From positions 1 through 39,343 of the forward strand of contig JAHFIC010000004.1 of the NCBI GenBank assembly GCA_023246555.1: DNA of 39,343 nt. Reading direction: 5' to 3'. Below the pieces are notes generated by a model. The model worked only from the letters and a program-made list of their open reading frames with translations, searched no databases and had not been told where the DNA came from. Numbering within the stretch: the first letter of the stretch is position 1; the number at the start of each line of letters is the position of its first letter. Origin of the DNA: Candidatus Magasanikiibacteriota bacterium (lineage in GTDB: Bacteria; Patescibacteriota; Patescibacteriia; Magasanikbacterales; UBA922). A program made the translations under genes and the position numbers. Shown here one piece after another: positions 4,572-18,366 of this stretch.

Positions 4572-6206
4572 CTATCCACGTTTCATCGCCGCATGAACAA
4601 ATGCTAAAAATAATGGATGCGGATTCATCGGACGTGATTTGAATTCTGGATGAAATTGAGTGCCCACAAAAAACGGATGGTCTTTGAGTTCGACAATTTC
4701 CACGAGGTCGGTTTCTGGATTTACGCCGACGATCCGGAGTCCTGCATGATCAACCATTTCTCGATATTCATTGTTGAACTCATACCGATGGCGGTGGCGT
4801 TCGGATATTTTGTCGCTCCCGTACGCTTTTCTTGTCCAACTCCCCTTTTTCAAAGCGCAATCATACGCGCCGAGGCGCATGGTGCCGCCATACCGGTTCT
4901 CGCGAACATTTTTCGCCTGCCGCGGATTGATGTGAATAATCGGATATGGTGTTTTCGGATCAATTTCTACCGTATTCGCCTGATGCTTTCCCAGTACATT
5001 TCTCGCAAATTCAATGCTCGCCAATTGCATGCCGTAGCACAAGCCGAAATACGGAATCTTTTTTTCACGCGCCAAACGGATCGCCTGAATAATACCTTCG
5101 ACTCCACGGTGACCGAATCCTCCCGGCACAATAATGCCGCTATATGCCGACAAATCATGAACCAACTCCGAGTTACTTTCGTATGCCTCGGAATCAATCC
5201 AGTCCATAACCGGCTTTGCGCCATGGTGCCACGCGGCATGCTTGACCGCCTCAATCACTGAAATATACGAATCAGACAGTGTGTATTTTCCCGTCCCAAA
5301 ATATTTGCCAACAACTGCGATATTTACTTGTTTTTCAGCGCTGTGGATTTTTTTCACCAAATCCTGCCATTGCTTCAAATTGCTCGACCGACGTTTCAAC
5401 CCCAAAATTTTCAATAAATTGTTCCCTGTCTCCTGCTCTTCAAATTTGAGCGGAACCTCGTAAATAGAAGCAACATCAGGCGCGGAGATGCAGTTTTCTG
5501 GACGAACGCCGCAAAAAATCGCGAGCTTTTCGCGCCGCGGACGGTCGAGCTCGGACGGGCCACGAGCGATAATGATATCAGCCGCAATTCCCGCTGAATT
5601 CAATGCCCGGGATGCATGCTGTGTTGGTTTGGTTTTCATCTCTCCCAAATGCGACGGCACAGGAAGATACGATACGAGAACAACAGCAACATCTCCGGGA
5701 GACTTTAATTTCATCATTCGCACTGCTTCCAAAAAAAGAATATTTTCATATTCCCCCACGGTGCCGCCGATTTCAATCGTCGTAATATCGGCATCACGCT
5801 TCTGCGCGGCTTCTTCGATGCGACGGATAATTTCATTGGGAACATCCGGGACTACTTGAACGCACCTCCCTTTATATTTCATGCTTCGTTCATCTTCAAT
5901 GACTGACAAATACACGCGACCGGTGGTCATGTAGTTCACGCTACCAAGATCGGCGTTCAAAAACCTCTCGTAATTTCCAATATCCTGATCCGTCTCATCC
6001 CCATCGTCGGTAACAAATACCTCGCCATGCTCAATCGGATTCATGGTGCCGGCATCCACGTTAATATACGGATCGGCCTTAAGCGCCGTAACGCGAAAGC
6101 CTTTGGCCGAAAAAATGGCGCCCAAAGACGCCGTCGCGACTCCCTTGCCGACGCCGGAGAGCACGCCGCCAACTACAAAAATATATTTACGCTGTTTTTT
6201 TGCCAT
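4572..6206 (-). CDS. pyrG: CTP synthase
   Basis: KYIFVVGGVLSGVGKG, DPYINVDAGTMNP..HGEVFVT.DG.ETD, glutaminase GLCYGMQ, ERHRHRYEFN, QFHPEFKSRP. Start taken at ATG 6206. Confidence 0.97.
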   Translation of the reverse strand: MAKKQRKYIFVVGGVLSGVGKGVATASLGAIFSAKGFRVTALKADPYINVDAGTMNPIEHGEVFVTDDGDETDQDIGNYERFLNADLGSVNYMTTGRVYLSVIEDERSMKYKGRCVQVVPDVPNEIIRRIEEAAQKRDADITTIEIGGTVGEYENILFLEAVRMMKLKSPGDVAVVLVSYLPVPSHLGEMKTKPTQHASRALNSAGIAADIIIARGPSELDRPRREKLAIFCGVRPENCISAPDVASIYEVPLKFEEQETGNNLLKILGLKRRSSNLKQWQDLVKKIHSAEKQVNIAVVGKYFGTGKYTLSDSYISVIEAVKHAAWHHGAKPVMDWIDSEAYESNSELVHDLSAYSGIIVPGGFGHRGVEGIIQAIRLAREKKIPYFGLCYGMQLASIEFARNVLGKHQANTVEIDPKTPYPIIHINPRQAKNVRENRYGGTMRLGAYDCALKKGSWTRKAYGSDKISERHRHRYEFNNEYREMVDHAGLRIVGVNPETDLVEIVELKDHPFFVGTQFHPEFKSRPMNPHPLFLAFVHAAMKRG

Positions 6207-8556: not shown

Positions 8557-9540
8557 TTACTTCAAGAAATCACTCAAAAGCGTTTCCAACTCCCCTAACG
8601 TATTTACGCGCACCAATTTTTCGCGCATAACTTTGAGGCCTTCCACTTCAAAACCAACTTTGTTCGTTTTGAAATACCATGAAAGATGCTTGCGAAATGA
8701 TACCATGCCGCGTTCGCCATACTGCGCAGAGTGTAATCGCGCATGCTCAAGAACAACCCGAACTCGCTCGTCGATAGATATTCTAGAATTTAGATTCTGT
8801 ATTCTAGATTCTGTCAAACGAAAAAACCACGGATTCCCCAACGCCCCGCGCGCGATTAAGACCCCGTCCGCACTGGTGATGTCCAACACTTCCCGCACCT
8901 GATGCGGCTCATGAATGTCCCCATTCGCCAAGATCGGCACGCGCGCGATTTTTTTTGCTTCTCTAATCCGCACCCAATCGCTTTTCCCGCTGTACCCTTG
9001 TGCTTTTGTCCGTCCATGAATAGTGATAAGCTCGGCGCCGGCATCTTCAATGACAGGAATAAACTTCCTGAATTCATCCGGGTCACTCCAGCCCAAACGA
9101 ATCTTCACCGACAGCGGCGTCTCGCCGATCGCGCGTTTCATTTCACGAATAATTGCTCCTGCGCGCTCCGGCTCCTTCATGAGAGCGCACCCATTAAAAT
9201 TGCTGATAATCTTATACACCGGACACCCCATGTTGATGTCGATACCTTCTGGACCCGCATGCTCCATCACAATTGCCGCGGCTTTTGCCATGGTCAATGG
9301 ATCCGCACCAAAAATCTGTTGCACAATCGGTCGTTCTGCTTCCACAAAATCCGTCATGCCAAGCGTTTTTTGGTTCTCTCGAATAAGCGCTTCACTCGAG
9401 ACCATTTCCCGAAACACAACATCGGCCCCACCAACTCGTCGGACAATCTGACAGAAAGCACTGTCGGTCATATCCGCCATCGGTGACAGCGCCAAAATTT
9501 TCTTGTTTTTTTGCAGAACCTCTTCAATCCACATACCCAT
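8557..9540 (-). CDS. dusB: tRNA-dihydrouridine synthase (DusB/NifR3 family)
   Basis: LSPMADMTD, QQIFG, IDINMGCP, SVKIRLGW, TIHGRT, ANGDI, IARGALGNPW. Start at ATG 9540 or 9534. Confidence 0.9.
   Translation of the reverse strand: MGMWIEEVLQKNKKILALSPMADMTDSAFCQIVRRVGGADVVFREMVSSEALIRENQKTLGMTDFVEAERPIVQQIFGADPLTMAKAAAIVMEHAGPEGIDINMGCPVYKIISNFNGCALMKEPERAGAIIREMKRAIGETPLSVKIRLGWSDPDEFRKFIPVIEDAGAELITIHGRTKAQGYSGKSDWVRIREAKKIARVPILANGDIHEPHQVREVLDITSADGVLIARGALGNPWFFRLTESRIQNLNSRISIDERVRVVLEHARLHSAQYGERGMVSFRKHLSWYFKTNKVGFEVEGLKVMREKLVRVNTLGELETLLSDFLK
8780..8814. repeat. 7-bp tandem repeat within dusB
   Basis: attctag aatttag attctgt attctag attctgt, encoding TESRIQNLNSRI. Confidence 0.75.
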
Positions 9541-9598
9541 AAATTTTGCATTTTGAGTTATCCACAACTGTATACTTTTTTAGCTAAAAAATCAACAT

Positions 9599-9627
9599 TT
9601 GACCAGCTAAAACGATGGTGCTATAGT
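9599..9627 (+). promoter_or_regulatory. Sigma70 promoter upstream of the riboswitch
   Basis: TTGACC (9599-9604), 17 nt spacer, TGc-TATAGT (9622-9627). Confidence 0.65.
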
Positions 9628-9643
9628 CCCTCTACAATTCAAC

Positions 9644-9756
9644 AACATATTTGTGGAAGTGAGGTGATCCGCCAAAGGCGGACAAGCATTCCTCTACTGT
9701 GCCGCAACGGTAAAGTCCCGATGGAATCGGGAACAAGTCCGGTCTTCAAATATGTT
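9644..9756 (+). ncRNA. Cobalamin (B12) riboswitch aptamer, compact form
   Basis: Closing stem aacatatttg/caaatatgtt; GGAA-gt-GAGG-TG...ATT-CCTC (P4); CTGtgccgCAACGGTAA (P5/P6); short cccgat/atcggg hairpin; B12-box AAGTCCGG. Lies upstream of DUF4430 genes. Confidence 0.85.
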
Positions 9757-9760
9757 TTAC

Positions 9761-9831
9761 GCCCGAGCAGGTAACGACGCGCTTTGCGTCTTTCTCCATC
9801 TCTACCTGTCCGGCTAGAGTTTTTTTATTTT
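9761..9831 (+). promoter_or_regulatory. Putative riboswitch expression platform (terminator-like)
   Basis: gcaggta/tacctgt outer stem with an inner gacgc/gcgtc hairpin, followed by a T-run (9820-9831) directly before ATG 9832. Confidence 0.5.
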
Positions 9832-10377
9832 ATGAAGGAATTTCATGCCAAACACAAGCACCATATTCGTCTGTGGATTCTTCTCGCCCTTCTAACCACG
9901 GTGAGCGGATATGTTGGGTACGGGCGATCATCGACGCCGAAACCAGAAGCCGGAAACCAAAAGTCGGAAATAACCCAGGGAAATGAATCGGTGGTTCAGA
10001 AAACACCAAACGATCAGGAAATTGTCTATACAAGCGTAGACAAACAGACGAAATTTGAGGAAACCACAGAAGCGGTATTTGTTCCGATTACTTTAGTGAT
10101 TGGTGAAGCCGAGTATATCGTACCCACCCCGCCGGACAGCACGGTTTACGCGCTCATGGAGACGGCACAAAGAAGCGGCGTCCTTCAATTTTCCAGTAAA
10201 AACTTCGGCGGCGACTTGGGCTATCTCATCGAAGAAATCAACGGCGTCAAAAATAGCGTCCGAGACAAAAAATATTGGATTTATTATATCAATGGGAAAA
10301 AAGCGGCGGTTGGAGTCTCAAACTACAAACCGCAAACGAACGACACCATCTCGTGGAAGTACGAGGACGAAGAGTGA
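9832..10377 (+). CDS. Membrane-anchored DUF4430 (transcobalamin C-terminal beta-domain-like) protein
   Basis: N-terminal TM helix, then STVYALM...GYLIEEINGVKN...KYWIYYINGKKAAVGVSNYKPQTNDTISWKY, the DUF4430 pattern. Confidence 0.85.
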   Translation: MKEFHAKHKHHIRLWILLALLTTVSGYVGYGRSSTPKPEAGNQKSEITQGNESVVQKTPNDQEIVYTSVDKQTKFEETTEAVFVPITLVIGEAEYIVPTPPDSTVYALMETAQRSGVLQFSSKNFGGDLGYLIEEINGVKNSVRDKKYWIYYINGKKAAVGVSNYKPQTNDTISWKYEDEE

Positions 10378-10411
10378 AATTTACCAATTTACTAATTTTC
10401 AAAACAAACTT

Positions 10412-13054
10412 ATGCATCTTCAGGTATATCGTCTTCTATTTATCCTCATTACCTTCCTCGGTGTCTGGAATGCCTCCCCTGCCCTGGCGGCTGATCCTGT
10501 GACTACCCACCTCACGATTCGACATGAAGATGTGATTGTTTTTGACGCCGATGTCTCCACCACAACAGAGGGAGCGACCACGGTTCTCGCAATGCTCCAG
10601 GCCGCGGATGAAGCAAGCGACGACTTTGCAATCACTGACCTGGCGTATTACGCCTCATTCAATGATTATCTCCTAAACTGTATTACATTCGGAAATCCAG
10701 AAACAAACGCCTGTTACAGTTGGAAATATGTGGTGAATGGCGAGTATCCGTTTCTTGGCATTGGCTCATACACGATTTCGGGCGGCGAATCGATTTACCT
10801 CTATTTCGGCGACCGCTATCGACTGGAGACGGAAGCTACAGAAGTGACACCGGATGATCCACTGATTGCCAGATTCTCTGAATACGATTTTGAAGCCAAC
10901 GCCTGGCTTCCCAAAGGTCAGAGTGAACTGCTTGCGACCGAGCCAATCTTACCTGATTATTCCAACTGGCCACCGGCGACCGTGCTCACAACCACAACCG
11001 ACAACGCCGGCGCCGCATCATTTCTTTTTTCCACAACCGGCACCTATTACATCACCATTCCAAATGACTACTGGCCGGGAGTAACCGTGGGGGTGATTGA
11101 CCCACCGGAAGAACCAGCGCCGTCTGTGCGACTCGTCGTGAGATATGGAGAGACATTTCTTTTTGATGAAGAAGTCGTTCTTCCGACCTCCACCGTAATT
11201 TCCTATACTGACTCGGCCACCGGCGCACCGGGAACGACCACCACGCTTCAGACATCCGTTTTGTCGCTCCTTCTCGCGACTGACGCGGCGACGAGTTCGT
11301 TATCGGTCACCCCGCCGGTGTACTACGAACAATTTGGCAGTTTTCTGGTGAATTGCATAAATGACGCGTGTTACAGTTGGAATTATGTCGTAGATGAACA
11401 ATATCCGCAGATTGGCCTGGACCAGTATCGCCTCCTCGGTGGAGAAACAATCTACGTTTATTTCAGCTCGCCGTGGCAGATCACAACGCCGTCCACAACC
11501 GTTGAAGTGGGAGAAGAAGTATCATTCGCCACTTGGCGGTATGAATACGACAATATTGAGGGATCCTGGACGCCTGACCCGAATACCAGTGTACAAATCT
11601 CTGTGCCAAATCCAGCGCCAACGGGATGGTGGGACGCGACAATTCCCGTAGCGACGATCACATCCAATGAGTCTGGTATTGCGACGACAACGTTTTCCGC
11701 GACTGGTACCTTTTCTGCAAGCATTACCTCGGCTGACTTTTCCAAGTGGAGCAGTCCGGTAACGGTGGAAGTGGTTGAGCCGGCCGTCCCACTACCGCCA
11801 GCGAACAATACTCAAAACTCGAACGGTGGTGGAACGAGTGCGCCGCCCGCATTTGACGTGCCGAGAGCCTTAATTTTCATCACCACTCAACAGAATTCAG
11901 ACGGATCGTTTGGCACACCTCTCTATACGGACTGGGCAGGAATCGCCCTTGGCGCCGTTCCCGGAACTTCTGCAGCCGAGGATCGGCTCCGCGCGTATCT
12001 TCTTACCAATCCAGACCCAGGGAGTCTGCTGACTGACATTGAACGCCGCGCTATGGCCCTTATGGCACTGGGTATTAACCCATACACAGGCACACAAACG
12101 AATTATATTGAACGCATTGTGGACAATTTCTCGAATGGTCAATTCGGTGATGTCGGTCTCTTCAACGACGACGTCTTTGCATTTTTTCCACTCATTCGCG
12201 CCGGTGTTTCTCCGAGCGATCCGCGCATCGCGAGCTCAACGGCATTTATTCTTTCTTTTCAGGAACCAAATGGCTCATGGGGAAGTGTTGATATGACTGG
12301 CGCGACGATCCAGGCCTTGGCGCTTGTTCCAGATATCCCCGGTGTTTCCGCTGCCACAGTCCGCGGAGTCGCCTACCTTGAGCAAACCGCAACCGATAAT
12401 GTGTTCTCTGCCGCGTGGAGCAATCAAGGCCTAGCGGCGGCCGGCAGGGCCGTAAATGATGCGCAACTTCTTTCGTTTCAAGAAGCTGATGGTGGCGTTA
12501 CAACAACTCCGCTTACTCCCAACAATCGTGTCTGGGGAACAAGTACCGTGATTCCGGCGGCATTGCATTTGCCATGGGGACAAATCTTGGCTGCTTTCAC
12601 GCCACCAATGCCAGCGGAAACTAATCAACAAGCGGGCGGTAACAACAGCCAGGCAAGTGGTGGTTTTGTGATTCCTCCGCAACCGGAAGAAGTCGCAACT
12701 ACGACCACCACCGGTTTGGAAGAACCGCAAACAGAAACCCCCCTTGCGCCGACAGATATTCAAGAAGGGTCGAATGATTCCACCAATGGAGAAACAGACC
12801 AAACACCGGTGGCATCTCAACCATCAGCCGATCCGACCGCGTCTGCCAATTCATACACGCCACCGCCGACATCCGAAGAAACGCCAGCTACAACGGCAGA
12901 TGAGATCACGGCAACACTCCCCGCTTCCGAAAAAACTGTTCTGTCGCAAAATCCGATTCAGGAAGCGGCCAGAGATGTGTTTGCCGGCTCGGCTAGTATG
13001 ACTGCTGGTCTCGGCCTATATCTCGCTTGGCGATTTCTTAAATTCATCGTATAG
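10412..13054 (+). CDS. Large surface protein: signal peptide, two DUF4430-like domains, prenyltransferase/squalene-oxidase-repeat alpha/alpha barrel, P/T-rich stalk, C-terminal TM anchor
   Basis: Signal MHLQVYRLLFILITFLGVWNASPALA; repeated CYSW[KN]YVV...YP..G...Y...GGE.IY.YF; QQNSDGSFG, QEPNGSWG and QEADGG repeats; C-terminal AGLGLYLAWRFLKFIV. Confidence 0.8.
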   Translation: MHLQVYRLLFILITFLGVWNASPALAADPVTTHLTIRHEDVIVFDADVSTTTEGATTVLAMLQAADEASDDFAITDLAYYASFNDYLLNCITFGNPETNACYSWKYVVNGEYPFLGIGSYTISGGESIYLYFGDRYRLETEATEVTPDDPLIARFSEYDFEANAWLPKGQSELLATEPILPDYSNWPPATVLTTTTDNAGAASFLFSTTGTYYITIPNDYWPGVTVGVIDPPEEPAPSVRLVVRYGETFLFDEEVVLPTSTVISYTDSATGAPGTTTTLQTSVLSLLLATDAATSSLSVTPPVYYEQFGSFLVNCINDACYSWNYVVDEQYPQIGLDQYRLLGGETIYVYFSSPWQITTPSTTVEVGEEVSFATWRYEYDNIEGSWTPDPNTSVQISVPNPAPTGWWDATIPVATITSNESGIATTTFSATGTFSASITSADFSKWSSPVTVEVVEPAVPLPPANNTQNSNGGGTSAPPAFDVPRALIFITTQQNSDGSFGTPLYTDWAGIALGAVPGTSAAEDRLRAYLLTNPDPGSLLTDIERRAMALMALGINPYTGTQTNYIERIVDNFSNGQFGDVGLFNDDVFAFFPLIRAGVSPSDPRIASSTAFILSFQEPNGSWGSVDMTGATIQALALVPDIPGVSAATVRGVAYLEQTATDNVFSAAWSNQGLAAAGRAVNDAQLLSFQEADGGVTTTPLTPNNRVWGTSTVIPAALHLPWGQILAAFTPPMPAETNQQAGGNNSQASGGFVIPPQPEEVATTTTTGLEEPQTETPLAPTDIQEGSNDSTNGETDQTPVASQPSADPTASANSYTPPPTSEETPATTADEITATLPASEKTVLSQNPIQEAARDVFAGSASMTAGLGLYLAWRFLKFIV

Positions 13055-13077
13055 TTTCACTATCTCCATCTATTAAT

Positions 13078-13611
13078 ATGCAAAAAAAACTTGACTACAT
13101 CCTCGTGTTCTTCCTCATCGCCCTGGGCGCAACCGCGCGGCTTTTTCCGCATCCGGCAAATGTCGCGCCCATCGGCGCGATCGCCCTCTTCGCCGGACTG
13201 TATCTGCCCCGCCGCCTGTCGCTTATCGTTCCCCTTTTTGCAATGTTTTTGAGCGATCTTGTCATCGGCTTTTACAGTCTGCCAATTATGACGGCGGTTT
13301 ACGGAAGTTTCCTTGTCTCGATCGCCATTGCGCGCATCATGAAAAGAAAAAAAACTATTCCGTTTCTCATCGGTGGTACGACGCTTGGCGCGATTGTCTT
13401 TTTCCTTTTGACCAATGCCGCGGTCTGGGCTTTTGGAACAATGTATTCGCACAGCCTTTCAGGCCTTGCGCACAGCTACAGTAGGGCTATTCCGTTCTTT
13501 CGAAACAGTCTCGTGGGAGATCTCTTTTTTGTCGGTCTTCTTATTGGTGGGTATGAACTCCTAGCCAAACTTCATCGGCGGCGGTTCGTTCACCTCTTCG
13601 AGCGAACCTGA
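13078..13611 (+). CDS. DUF6580-family membrane protein (ECF S-component-like putative transporter)
   Basis: RLFPHPANVAPIGAIALFAG, SDLVIGFY, FFLLTNAAVW, Y..AIPFFRNSLVGDL; 177 aa, about 5-6 TM segments. Confidence 0.8.
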   Translation: MQKKLDYILVFFLIALGATARLFPHPANVAPIGAIALFAGLYLPRRLSLIVPLFAMFLSDLVIGFYSLPIMTAVYGSFLVSIAIARIMKRKKTIPFLIGGTTLGAIVFFLLTNAAVWAFGTMYSHSLSGLAHSYSRAIPFFRNSLVGDLFFVGLLIGGYELLAKLHRRRFVHLFERT

Positions 13612-14952
13612 AATTGGAGCCACCACCCGTTCGATCGGCAGTGTTGCCGGCGGTTCGGCGCGCTTGCCCTCAATTTTCTGCAGGGATGGGGTCTTGATGT
13701 GCGACATGGGAAAATGCCAGATCGTGGCCAATTCTTCAATATTCAAAATAAATGGATTCGCACCCACCTTCATTTTGCGCTTTTTGTAGGCATTCATGAG
13801 GAGCCGTTTACGATAATTCGCGCGCCACACAGCGCCGACATACGACGTGTGCACCCCATACGTTGGCGCCAAAGAATTCGCTGATGGGATATTGAATTGA
13901 TTGATCGCGCCAATGAGCGCCGATACCGCCCGCTGAACTTTAAACACTTCCTTTCGCGCAATATACACGCCGCGCATTTTTGTTTTGAACCCAATCTTTG
14001 AAATTTTTTCTTCGATCCCTTCAACAAGTTTGCTTTCCCCAGGTGTTAAATATTGTATCTTATTGGGCGGACCGCTGTCATCATTGGATTCCGCGTGGGC
14101 ATCTTCCTCACCGCCAAAAATCTGCTGCCCGGCGAATTCCAACACCTTGATTGGTGCGTTAGCCAGCGCTTGGAGTATCTGCGATCCACCATGATGCCCA
14201 TGGCCCGTATCGCCAACAAGTTCTTTCACTTTGGCAATACCCTTCTCCTTCCAGTCATTGCCTGTCGGCTGAACAAGAATTTGGAACCAAAGTTGTTCGC
14301 CGGGGCCAATGCGCGTAAAACTTTCCAAAAATGCCGCCATCGGATCTTTCAATTGCGTATCTTTTGAAATGGTATGTTCAAAGTCCTGATAGGTGCGAAG
14401 CGGGTAGGTGTCGGATTCTGTAAGGGTAAAGTCAGCGCCCCACATGTTGTGCGTTTCATTCGGAAACTGGGTTGGAACACTCGTCACATAATCATCAACT
14501 TCTGTAATTTCCACCTCCGGATATTGAGCGTACACCGCCGCTTCGACCAGATCGCGAAATGTTTCTTCGGTGCGAATAAGAAACTGAATATATCCTTCGA
14601 TGCTGATAATTTCAAAGCTAAAATGCGGTTGTTTATACCCGTGCCAAAACTTTTTTGCGATGTCCTCATGCTCATGCGCTCCTGCCAAGTGCGCAAAAAT
14701 TTGTTCTACGGCTTTTGGTGTCTGCACATTAAGGAGCGGAATATCGACTGCCAGGACTACCCATTTCCAATGGGCGGTATATCGCGATTCTTTCCATTCC
14801 ACCCACATCGCAAGGCCGGCAAAAAAAAGGAGATGGAATAAAATAAGCCAACCACCCATGGCAGTAATTTGAGAAATGATCTCCCACGTCGACTGTTCAG
14901 AAAAAAAACGATTGATTTGATCGACGTCAATGTAGAGCGGCCCAAATTGCAT
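13561..14952 (-). CDS. Conserved CPR-type membrane-anchored protein resembling the N-terminal region of VirD4/HerA-like ATPase fusions
   Basis: N-terminal TM; PKAVEQIFAHL, SFEIISIEG.IQF, AVYAQYPEVEITEVDDY, ILNIEELATIWHFP; no Walker A motif seen. Confidence 0.6.
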   Translation of the reverse strand: MQFGPLYIDVDQINRFFSEQSTWEIISQITAMGGWLILFHLLFFAGLAMWVEWKESRYTAHWKWVVLAVDIPLLNVQTPKAVEQIFAHLAGAHEHEDIAKKFWHGYKQPHFSFEIISIEGYIQFLIRTEETFRDLVEAAVYAQYPEVEITEVDDYVTSVPTQFPNETHNMWGADFTLTESDTYPLRTYQDFEHTISKDTQLKDPMAAFLESFTRIGPGEQLWFQILVQPTGNDWKEKGIAKVKELVGDTGHGHHGGSQILQALANAPIKVLEFAGQQIFGGEEDAHAESNDDSGPPNKIQYLTPGESKLVEGIEEKISKIGFKTKMRGVYIARKEVFKVQRAVSALIGAINQFNIPSANSLAPTYGVHTSYVGAVWRANYRKRLLMNAYKKRKMKVGANPFILNIEELATIWHFPMSHIKTPSLQKIEGKRAEPPATLPIERVVAPISGSLEEVNEPPPMKFG

Positions 14953-16305: not shown

Positions 16306-18366
16306 TCACGAATTCTTGTTATCTGCCGGATGCGCTTTTGCACCCAAAAACAGCCGATTGGCAAACTCCGGAAACCACGGAACGACAAACCGCAAAAAAA
16401 CACGGCTGACCGTAACGGCGGAGAATAGACTCATAAGCACCCCGATGGCAAGCGTAATCGCGAACCCTTTCACAAAGCTAATACCAAACCACAAGAGAAG
16501 ACTGCAGCTAATGAGCGTTGAAAGATGGCTGTCCCGAATGGAGGACCACGCACGTAAAAATCCTTCTTCCACCGCCGCCCGGAGACTTTTGCCACTTCGC
16601 AATTCTTCTTTCATGCGTTCAAAAATAAGAACATTCGCATCAACGGCAGCGCCAATAGAAAGAACAAAACCAGCAATGCCTGCCAAAGTGAGTGTAATGC
16701 CGAAGAGTTTAAATATGGCCAGGCTCACCGTGATATACACCAGAAGCGCAATCGCAGAAATCAACCCCGGCAAACGATAATACAGCACCATAAAAAGAAT
16801 CACCAGGAGAAAACCAGCGATGCCCGCATGCAAACTCTTGGTGATAGAATCCGCGCCAAGCGTAGCCCCGAGCGACTGCTGACCAATAAGCTCTACCGGC
16901 ACAGGCAGAGCGCCCGCATTCAAACGTTGCGTAAGGAGTCTTGCTTCAGCAATCGTGAAGTTCCCCGTAATGACTGCTTTACCCTCCGCAATTGCCTGCT
17001 GTACCGTAGGGATGCTAATTGGCTGTCCATCTAAGAAAATTGCAACTGGTTTCCCGACATTTCTTGTGGTAATTTCTTCAAACAACTTTCTCCCCTCTTC
17101 ATTGAATGTGAGGGACACCTGTACCGCGCCCGTCGTCGGATCTTGAACCACTTCAGAACGCGCCAACTGCTTCCCGGACAAACCGGTATTTTTCCATGGA
17201 TCGACAGGAGGGAGAAAATCAGCCTCACTTTTCGTGCGAACAAGAATGCGGGAGATATCGTATTCTTGTGGTGTCTCTTCGGCAGTTTTCCAAATAATGT
17301 GATATCCGAATTGCGTCTCAACTGGTCCGATAATTTCTCCGACTTTTGCTCCAAAAATTGCAGATTCAAATGTCGGTACCATGGCGCCTTTTGGGAAAAA
17401 TCCCAAATCACCGCTATTATCGCGATTGCTGGCATCCGCGGAATATTCTTTGGCCAACGCCGCGAAGGTGTCCGCATTCGCTTGCGTATATATTTCCTGT
17501 GCTTTGGCGAATGCCTCTTCTTTTGTGTATTTGGTATCCGTACAGCTTGTGGAACCAAGATAACAGATCAAGATGTGACTGGCGCGCACTTCGGAAGCAC
17601 CTGCCTTTTCCACCCCACGCTTGGCAATACTATAACCGTCGGCTGTCCGGATGAGGGTTGATGAGATCTGTTCTTCTTTGGCTGTTTTTGCCCATTCATA
17701 GAGAGCAGCAAACGGGGTGCTTTTACCGATGGAGCCTAAGAAGCCGCCATTGTTTTTGCTCTGCTCATCTTCAGATGATTCTTTTGCAACCGCGGCAAAA
17801 TCAGCCCCACCACGGACTTTTTTCAACAACTCTTTTCCTCGTTTTTCCGCGTCTTTGTTCATTGCATCAAGCTGTTGTTTTTCCTCTGCCGTAAGCTCGC
17901 GAGGTGGGTCGGTATTTCCTTCACGAAATTCCAAAATCGGTGTTTCACCAATCATGGCGATGGCCTCTGCCACATCTGAAACCCCCGGCAATTCAACAAT
18001 CAGTCGAAATTCATCGCCAACTTTTGTGTTTTGAATATTTGGCTCTCCAACACCAAGGCCATTGACCCGGCGATCAATAACGTCACGCACGCCCTCTACG
18101 GCCTGCGCGCGATCAGCCTCTGGAATATCCGAAACATCTGCCGCATATGAAAGTTGGGTTCCTCCTTGAAGATCAAGCCCAAGACGAAAATTCTTTTCCG
18201 GAATGTGCGGCAATCCTAAAGCCACGGATTGATTAATAAGATCAATCGCTCGGTTGGTATACCCGGGAGCAACAAACATTCCGGCAATGATCAGGAGACC
18301 AAAAACACCGGCAATCCCCCATCGGATTTTCGCGCGTAATTTCGATGCAACCTCAACCCTCGGCAT
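16306..18366 (-). CDS. secD: Protein translocase subunit SecD with inserted tandem parvulin PPIase domains
   Basis: LGLDLQGG, RVNGLGVGEP, LNAGALPVP, IGAAVDANVLIFERMKEE, VKGFAITL; the insert carries FAAVAKESSED..SKNNGGFLG and VRASHILI...SGDLGFFPKGAMVPTFESAIF...GPVETQFGYHII. Confidence 0.93.
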   Translation of the reverse strand: MPRVEVASKLRAKIRWGIAGVFGLLIIAGMFVAPGYTNRAIDLINQSVALGLPHIPEKNFRLGLDLQGGTQLSYAADVSDIPEADRAQAVEGVRDVIDRRVNGLGVGEPNIQNTKVGDEFRLIVELPGVSDVAEAIAMIGETPILEFREGNTDPPRELTAEEKQQLDAMNKDAEKRGKELLKKVRGGADFAAVAKESSEDEQSKNNGGFLGSIGKSTPFAALYEWAKTAKEEQISSTLIRTADGYSIAKRGVEKAGASEVRASHILICYLGSTSCTDTKYTKEEAFAKAQEIYTQANADTFAALAKEYSADASNRDNSGDLGFFPKGAMVPTFESAIFGAKVGEIIGPVETQFGYHIIWKTAEETPQEYDISRILVRTKSEADFLPPVDPWKNTGLSGKQLARSEVVQDPTTGAVQVSLTFNEEGRKLFEEITTRNVGKPVAIFLDGQPISIPTVQQAIAEGKAVITGNFTIAEARLLTQRLNAGALPVPVELIGQQSLGATLGADSITKSLHAGIAGFLLVILFMVLYYRLPGLISAIALLVYITVSLAIFKLFGITLTLAGIAGFVLSIGAAVDANVLIFERMKEELRSGKSLRAAVEEGFLRAWSSIRDSHLSTLISCSLLLWFGISFVKGFAITLAIGVLMSLFSAVTVSRVFLRFVVPWFPEFANRLFLGAKAHPADNKNS

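Follow-up and report, generated by a model that had tools for sequence, protein, structure and literature searches.

Analysis of a 39,343-nt stretch of DNA from a Candidatus Magasanikiibacteriota bacterium (hereafter the window; contig C43 of a 770-kb genome in 56 contigs, completeness 94.7%) revealed a plus-strand cassette of a leader and three genes that is probably an operon for scavenging cobamide (vitamin B12) in a Patescibacteria-type bacterium with a small genome. The genes, named A, B and C here, are co-oriented with intergenic gaps of 37 and 23 nt, in agreement with the spacing below 40 nt reported in an initial annotation made from the sequence of the window. The leader and the genes are arranged as follows.

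9599–9627, plus strand: candidate sigma-70-like promoter (TTGACC, 17-nt spacer, TG of an extended -10 element, TATAGT; 10/12 matches)
9629–9792, plus strand: predicted aptamer of an adenosylcobalamin (AdoCbl)-type cobalamin riboswitch (RF01482, clan CL00101), conserved core at 9644–9757
9760–9831, plus strand: expression platform with an interrupted hairpin (about 9760–9814) and a U-run (9820–9831) abutting the start codon
9832–10377, plus strand: gene A, 181 aa, Pfam PF14478 DUF4430
10415–13054, plus strand: gene B, 879 aa, starting at an ATG inside a 984-aa open reading frame (ORF), Pfam DUF4430
13078–13611, plus strand: gene C, 177 aa, Pfam PF20221 DUF6580

As the initial annotation had stated, the cassette contains no gene for an ATP-binding cassette (ABC) or energy-coupling factor (ECF) ATPase, for BtuF or for BtuB. 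No NCBIfam model was available for genes A, B or C.

We propose that at low intracellular adenosylcobalamin the aptamer of the leader would be unliganded and the three genes would be expressed. Cobamide would be captured outside the cell by the tethered DUF4430 protein of gene A and by the stalked protein of gene B, through its beta domains and barrel, with a hand-off between the two, and the DUF6580 protein of gene C would move it across the membrane, apparently without an ECF ATPase or EcfT, as BtuM is thought to do. The imported vitamin would then be adenosylated, presumably by a PduO-type enzyme, whose gene adjoins nrdJ in the closest relatives, and would serve the class II ribonucleotide reductase (RNR) NrdJ.

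Gene C matched PF20221 with 154.8 bits (cut-off 27; E 3e-45) over profile positions 6–157 of 162; NCBI labels the 'DUF6580' protein only as a 'putative transport protein'. A structure model based on a 60-sequence alignment (pLDDT 94.5, pTM 0.86) has the six-helix architecture of S-components. Foldseek ranked BtuM–B12 complexes first (TM 0.73–0.75, E 0.015–0.05), followed by ECF S-components, and an exhaustive VIA search also placed BtuM at the top (Z 15.7, rmsd 2.7 A, 161 of 175 residues), ahead of RibU (14.1), BioY (13.9), ThiT (13.7), FolT (13.6) and further entries, the lowest of them CbiM (10.1); CbrT reached Z 8.0 on 132 modelled residues. All top 15 rows of the VIA search (Z 10.1–15.7) were S-components or CbiM, that is, one transporter class, although Z values of this size can be generic for helical bundles. 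Both methods thus bear out the S-component-like character that had been suggested for this protein. When a profile of the DUF6580 family (60 proteins) was compared with PDB sequences at E <= 10, the sole match was a 182-aa membrane chain of ECF-CbrT (6FNP; E 1.6e-6, 31 bits, profile positions 4–121, 118 of 180 profile positions). From the length and name of this chain and the S-component fold of chain E, we infer that it is CbrT, and DUF6580 is therefore a relative of a characterized B12 S-component. Residues R21, N28, D60, F108, N113, Y123, G129 and F140 are invariant in the family, and H25 is present in 45/60 members.

The kinship with CbrT also fits another explanation, in which DUF6580 is an ordinary CbrT-like ECF S-component whose energizing module is too divergent to be detected or was not assembled, so that the cassette would belong to a standard ECF-CbrT-type transporter with accessory binders. 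An AxxxA-type motif is linked to contact with EcfT, and a pattern of this type occurs within the first 45 residues of 35 of the 60 DUF6580 members. The state of the window genome (94.7% complete, 56 contigs) would be compatible with an unassembled module, and CbrT alone, without the ECF module, gave no complementation of E. coli (Santos et al. 2018, PMC5997447). However, EcfT (PF02361) was found in only 6 of 301 genomes sampled from the phylum and in 1 of the 74 with DUF6580 (G250); some of the EcfT-negative genomes, for example G192 and G071, are closed or 100% complete, and the same search gave matches in 11 of 14 control genomes. The sample includes one unpublished genome, G154 (NrdJ-positive, DUF6580-negative), which adds one genome to the tallies and on which no other result depends. 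A search of the window genome for ecfT, which the initial annotation had proposed, likewise found no EcfT/CbiQ (PF02361), EcfA not being searched for separately. In one genome of the phylum, an EcfT gene (PF02361, 106 bits) adjoins a DUF4430 gene (G026:C28:14908–16382, minus strand), and by its sequence this locus appears to represent the binder in its classical, ECF-linked form inside the phylum; the arrangement would suit an ordinary ECF transporter, but G026 has no DUF6580. The organisms that carry BtuM, the best structural match, have no ECF module (PMC6072759). We consider an ordinary ECF system unlikely.

DUF6580 could also be a membrane receptor, a docking platform or a B12-processing protein, with import carried out by another transporter elsewhere in the genome. 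Its transport role is deduced from fold and kinship, BtuM shows decyanation activity in addition to its presumed role in transport (PMC6072759), and the 113 of 227 DUF6580-negative genomes that have NrdJ need some other import route. Yet the solved proteins that share the fold at Z >= 10 all belong to the substrate-translocating S-components or are CbiM. A permease of the FecCD/BtuC type over the cut-off was found in none of the eight genomes tested, the window's own included, and DUF6580 is the most constant partner of DUF4430 (69/74). A non-translocating role is thus very unlikely in our view, and sequence and model together make the product of gene C a probable cobamide importer, CbrT-related and BtuM-like.

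The initial annotation had described the product of gene A as a membrane-anchored DUF4430 protein, and this description holds: residues 104–178 matched PF14478 (E 1.2e-14, 54.9 bits, cut-off 23.8), and a hydrophobic N-terminal membrane anchor and a linker precede this C-terminal domain, which is of the transcobalamin beta-like, SLBB type. Its match to the beta domain of intrinsic factor was weak (E 0.5). A hydrophobic segment at the N-terminus was seen in 37 of 43 small DUF4430 proteins, and a crude pattern search assigned a lipobox-like motif to 6 of the 43. By sequence, gene A probably encodes a CbrS-like B12 binder. A complex prediction for DUF6580 and the DUF4430 domain of gene A, run without controls, scored 0.00 and counts neither way.

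Gene B matched DUF4430 once by sequence (E 5.6e-9, 36.8 bits, cut-off 23.8), a second copy being visible only in the structure model. The AlphaFold model (mean pLDDT 81.2; pTM 0.46, so that the packing between domains is unreliable) contains DUF4430-like beta domains at about 28–135 and 237–355, each followed by a beta-sandwich, a 12-helix alpha/alpha barrel at 480–725, a disordered stalk at 739–845 and a C-terminal transmembrane helix at 847–878; it agrees with the two DUF4430-like domains, barrel and stalk named in the initial annotation. With its signal peptide and a stalk rich in Pro, Thr and Ser, the product is a surface protein by architecture. The profile of the gene B family matched the beta domains of both transcobalamin-1 and intrinsic factor (E 4e-5), in line with the likeness of DUF4430 to that domain, as well as squalene-hopene cyclase repeats (E 1e-12). 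In a Pfam tally of 60 family members, SQHop_cyclase_C was found in 50, PF01122 (the eukaryotic cobalamin-binding protein family, Cobalamin_bind, counted at E <= 0.001) in 28, DUF4430 in 26, Prenyltrans in 12 and TED in 12. PF01122 maps onto the barrel in all five members examined, with 29.7–32.6 bits against a cut-off of 25.

In the leader, the predicted aptamer aligned with the full length of RF01482 (9629–9792; model positions 1–149; 37.1 bits, E 2.5e-5) in a permissive scan of 9450–9900 (451 nt). Since Rfam finds nothing at its gathering score in the window or, with RF00174 and RF01482, in the genome, the case for this riboswitch, which by sequence comparison appears real but is weak by Rfam, rests on its relatives, namely 60 loci around DUF6580 genes from other genomes of the phylum (L034–L093). 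Nine of these loci contain a cobalamin-clan match at the gathering score (three RF01482, five RF00174, one RF01689), in each case 5' of the cassette genes, on their strand and at a place homologous to that in the window; among them is G071, a genome from the order to which the window also belongs, with the same three-gene layout. The core sequence is common to the window and these above-threshold relatives, while the window aptamer carries an extra hairpin in one loop, and the P1 helix differs between the window and G071 by a compensatory change (ATATTTG/CAAATAT versus ATATCTG/CAGATAT). RNAalifold analysis of the window with eight loci (nine sequences) gave 16 pairs, of which 11 show compensatory changes, and covariation is present in three aptamer helices. 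The cobalamin riboswitch of the initial annotation therefore stands through its relatives and their covariation, and not through its own Rfam score.

A lineage covariance model, R1, was built on this nine-sequence alignment, in which the window is one of the nine seeds. A search of 61 sources with R1 gave 27 matches at E <= 1 and 24 at E <= 1e-4, the latter comprising the window and 23 of the 60 loci, 15 of which were non-seeds. All 27 matches are located on the cassette strand, upstream of cassette genes. In their alignment, 90.9% of cells were paired, compared with 37–49% with slid partners, and the covariation score was 0.698, compared with at most 0.152 after sliding, but both figures are favoured by the fitting of the alignment to R1. 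In a specificity control on 12 whole genomes, R1 gave 13 matches, all upstream of DUF4430-type genes, and 11 of them were cassette leaders; the genome of the window gave no match other than its cassette leader. One extra match precedes a second, 118-aa DUF4430 gene in G071. A match in G192 (L094 5468–5570, minus strand; C1) precedes a 106-aa ORF (4984–5301, minus strand) that has a sub-threshold DUF4430 match (E 0.0028) and a twin-arginine-like, lipobox-like N-terminus; it is the sole R1 match of that genome, whose DUF4430–DUF6580 pair has no detected riboswitch. Cobalamin riboswitches of the phylum are probably under-annotated, with Rfam cut-offs missing most of them (9/60 loci by Rfam versus 23/60 by the lineage model).

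The remainder of the leader gave a mixed picture. The promoter claimed in the initial annotation has a well-placed candidate site, which ends 2 nt 5' of the aptamer match, but the number of promoter-like sites in the region is not above chance (2 versus 3.8 +/- 1.8 in shuffles). The terminator-like platform that had been described was not confirmed: a terminator scan found none on the plus strand of the leader, and the platform hairpin, from which the U-run begins after 5 nt, folded no better than shuffles (z-scores -0.7 to -1.4). A 10-nt sequence 3' of the aptamer, CCCGAGCAGG (window 9762–9771), is identical in the G212 leader (L061) and could be conserved as part of the platform or as a kissing-loop element.

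The initial annotation had named a class II RNR as the likely consumer of the vitamin and placed it outside the window, and it was found there. The genome contains one PF02867 RNR, located on a contig other than that of the cassette (C4), and this protein is a class II NrdJ (TIGR02504, 477 bits, cut-off 400; NF005122, 871 bits, cut-off 859; class II N-terminal domain), the only RNR detected in the genome; its gene is cut by the contig end at residue 734. No class III RNR was found in the genome, nor was a PF02310 B12-binding domain, B12 enzymes without PF02310 (e.g., QueG) not being searched for. PF08471 was rejected as a marker of class II RNR because it matched 0/14 control genomes, and TIGR02504 was used instead.

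Across the 301 genomes, DUF6580 was found in 74 and DUF4430 in 80, and 69 contained both, in keeping with the co-occurrence expected from the first interpretation. A DUF4430 domain lies on the same strand within 500 nt upstream of DUF6580 in 44/74 genomes, and within 5 kb in 12 more. Pfam DUF6580 was absent from all 14 control genomes, L. lactis included. In 25 of the 60 related loci, a co-oriented nrdJ lies within 6 kb upstream of DUF6580; the window cassette has no adjoining nrdJ, its nrdJ being the one at the end of C4. The gene between nrdJ and DUF4430 encodes a CobA/BtuR adenosyltransferase in nine of nine loci tested; one further ORF, the tenth examined, codes for a HAD hydrolase. Linkage to the riboswitch, to nrdJ or to both was found in 42/60 loci. 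The large protein of the gene B type is present in 10/60 loci, all of which have an R1 match at E <= 0.01.

With TIGR02504 rows at E <= 1e-120 taken as equivalent to the cut-off in the per-genome split, NrdJ was found in 170/301 genomes, including 57/74 with and 113/227 without DUF6580. Since so many DUF6580-negative genomes still have NrdJ, a second B12 import route must exist in the phylum. Among the 17 DUF6580-positive genomes without NrdJ, a strong match of the RTPR-like kind is present in 7 and PF02310 over the cut-off in 10, 15/17 in all, with G235 and G073 ambiguous in this count; several of these genes adjoin the cassette. As a separate observation, the NrdJ model matches at full length two to four times in a row at G152:C7:11243–17104, G024:C1:781946–787588, G132:C39, G250:C9, G205:C1, G124:C10, G088:C46 and G011:C12, in some cases inside a single open frame of roughly 2,000 aa; in G132, G250 and G205 these matches immediately precede the cassette. 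They could be tandem or fused copies of class II RNR, or intein-type arrangements.

These linkages also bear on the identity of the ligand. Heme or another tetrapyrrole might be the substrate, as proposed for the homologous L. sakei lsa1836–1840 system, with the connection to B12 being regulatory or coincidental. A preprint argues for heme uptake by the L. sakei system (10.1101/864751), B12-making archaea may use SLBB proteins for another metabolite (PMC1796856), and the barrel of gene B is as similar to the alpha/alpha barrels of terpene cyclases and TED as to that of transcobalamin. Set against this, a cobalamin-clan riboswitch precedes the cassette in 23/60 loci, nrdJ and a corrinoid adenosyltransferase belong to the same gene string in many others, every one of the 10 large-protein loci has the riboswitch, and CbrT, the sequence relative of DUF6580, transports cobalamin and cobinamide (PMC5997447). 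A ligand other than a cobamide seems to us highly improbable, slightly more so than a DUF6580 that translocates nothing.

The heme import argued for L. sakei is nevertheless one of several points that weigh against a B12-scavenging operon of the kind proposed here. In the leader, the aptamer score of 37.1 bits is 13 bits short of the gathering score of 50; an Rfam scan of the window at the gathering score gave no cobalamin riboswitch, and whole-genome scans with RF00174 and RF01482 gave no match and did not recover the aptamer. The score of the window against R1 (63.7 bits) is not independent, the window being a seed. The window's gene B has no PF01122 match at E <= 0.1, and a whole-protein Foldseek search with gene B placed TEP1, alpha2-macroglobulin and complement proteins on top (global TM about 0.2), a ranking that reflects the beta-sandwiches together with the alpha/alpha barrel and does not settle the closest family of the barrel. 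In the PDB sequence comparison at E <= 10, DUF6580 showed no similarity to BtuM, of whose family it is apparently not a member. Cys80, the invariant and essential cobalt ligand of BtuM (PMC6072759), has no counterpart: the window's DUF6580 and 18/60 members contain zero Cys, and the most Cys-rich column holds 32/60. The failure of solitary CbrT in E. coli means that an S-component alone may not suffice. The co-occurrence of NrdJ with DUF6580 is only a modest enrichment, NrdJ being common in the phylum anyway. Finally, neither a PduO nor a CobA adenosyltransferase was found in the window's genome, in which nrdJ is cut by the contig end. A PduO gene lies directly downstream of nrdJ in the same-order genomes G071, G158 and G192 (100% complete), so the missing adenosyltransferase is probably an assembly gap; G295 also has a PduO gene, and G175 has CobA. 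With these points included, the analysis supports the first interpretation of the cassette as largely right.

Both neighbours of the cassette are located on the minus strand.

8557–9567, minus strand: dihydrouridine synthase, flanking the cassette
13561–14952, minus strand: ORF of 463 aa, unmatched in Pfam at E <= 0.1, flanking the cassette

The 463-aa ORF is convergent with the cassette and overlaps the final 51 nt of the DUF6580 gene. The GC content of the cassette (0.45–0.54) differs little from that of the flanks (0.46–0.50), and thus there is no case for a recent transfer. Homologs of the cassette proteins are labelled Patescibacteria, Falkowbacteria, Magasanikbacteria, Wildermuthbacteria and Paceibacterota in their source records, in keeping with the CPR origin that the initial annotation had assumed. 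Elsewhere in the window, a SecD homolog (16306–18366, minus strand) contains a PPIC-type peptidyl-prolyl isomerase (rotamase) domain at residues of about 246–359, between the first part of P1 and the P1 head, which is an unusual fusion of a foldase with the Sec machinery.

A cobamide-importing cassette would give a testable function to DUF6580, a Pfam family of unknown function, and would provide a cofactor route for genomes of about 0.8 Mb in which a B12-dependent RNR is the only detected source of deoxynucleotides and no enzymes with a B12-binding domain were detected; the supply of B12 may be part of the dependence of these organisms on hosts or neighbours. The phylum also offers many natural cases of a CbrT-related S-component in genomes without EcfT, which bear on how solitary S-components move their substrate. 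A bolder reading, which we offer tentatively and rate somewhat short of an even chance, is that Patescibacteria import cobamides via a stand-alone CbrT-like S-component without ATPase or EcfT, loaded by a transcobalamin-like surface relay in which a short tethered binder is combined with a long stalked one reaching outward, possibly to a host cell. If this is true, ECF-independent transport by S-components would be a widespread mode and not a proteobacterial oddity represented by BtuM; it would be present in about a quarter of the sampled genomes of the phylum, also in Planctomycetota and, joined to a TonB receptor, in Acidobacteriota, and the missing link that joins CbrT to BtuM would be DUF6580. 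The lead beyond the phylum comes from the ESM Atlas, which lists a DUF6580 cluster of 158 members, commonest in Planctomycetota, together with an Acidobacteriota cluster of 95 members whose DUF6580 is attached to a TonB-dependent receptor (Plug and beta-barrel, 794 aa). This join may be a real fusion or a gene-calling artefact. An ESM Atlas feature search gave no usable match beyond PF20221.

Comparison with known systems turned up precedents for the capture proteins and the type of S-component as well as for the riboswitch and for the connection with class II RNR. The initial annotation had overstated the novelty of the cassette, having missed both the kinship of DUF6580 with CbrT and the SLBB scavengers and ECF operons described in 2007, when the transcobalamin-like SLBB clade was defined (Burroughs, Balaji, Iyer and Aravind; PMC1796856). 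According to that study, bacterial SLBB proteins are fused to an alpha/alpha toroid on either side and to Ig domains, carry signal peptides and anchors, and occur in B12 non-producers and in operons with CbiO/CbiQ-like genes; B12 scavenging was inferred. Genes A and B fit this description, whereas the CbiO-like ATPase and CbiQ-like genes of those operons are both missing here and the partner is DUF6580. In L. sakei lsa1836–1840, an S-component is co-transcribed with transcobalamin beta-like and alpha-like proteins proposed to scavenge a ligand and pass it to the S-component (preprint 10.1101/864751). That system likewise sets an S-component beside beta and alpha parts; it differs in its full ECF module, in having alpha and beta as separate proteins and in its argued substrate, and the parts of the preprint consulted do not mention a riboswitch. 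Transcobalamin, intrinsic factor and haptocorrin (PF01122 and PF14478) share the building blocks of gene B, an alpha/alpha barrel and a beta domain, but gene B has the order beta, beta, alpha, the reverse of their N-terminal alpha and C-terminal beta domains, which sandwich B12, and it has a duplicated beta module, beta-sandwich spacers, a stalk, a membrane anchor and a barrel that scores below PF01122. Bacteroides BtuH was considered as a further carrier of DUF4430 and dropped; the BtuH paper contains none of the terms 'DUF', 'Pfam' and 'transcobalamin'. Compared with the AdoCbl riboswitch RF01482, the aptamer shares the full-length alignment and the core of above-threshold relatives and differs in its score and in the extra hairpin.

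Among transporters, BtuM of Thiobacillus denitrificans (PDB 8C7P/8OVV), a solitary S-component (Rempel et al. 2018, PMC6072759), resembles DUF6580 in fold, in the apparent absence of an ECF module and in the predicted role in B12 import; BtuM is proteobacterial and linked to BtuB, whereas the partners to which DUF6580 is linked in this phylum are DUF4430 binders. ECF-CbrT of Lactobacillus delbrueckii, whose cbrT belongs to an nrdJ-cbrS-cbrT-pduO cluster (PMC5997447), shares with the cassette system profile homology and the fold class and, with many of the related loci (nrdJ in 25/60), the set of nrdJ, a small upstream gene (cbrS there, DUF4430 here), an S-component and a corrinoid adenosyltransferase. 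It differs in that CbrT needs EcfA, EcfA' and EcfT, and EcfT was not found in the DUF6580-bearing genome here. A DUF4430 gene that adjoins rtpR in L. rhamnosus (PMC9963975) and DUF4430 matches in the L. lactis control genome are hints, though only hints, that CbrS is a DUF4430 protein. The literature searched, most subscription journals lying outside it, contained nothing on DUF6580 or, for Patescibacteria, on a cobalamin riboswitch or on cobalamin together with a transporter and RNR. Three points are apparently new: the role assigned here to DUF6580 together with its relation to CbrT, the systematic presence of DUF6580 in genomes of the phylum that lack a detected EcfT, and the conserved nrdJ–adenosyltransferase–DUF4430–DUF6580 strings. 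Taken together, the system resembles B12 uptake of the cbrS/cbrT type with a fused transcobalamin-like surface protein added and, apparently, the ECF module left out.

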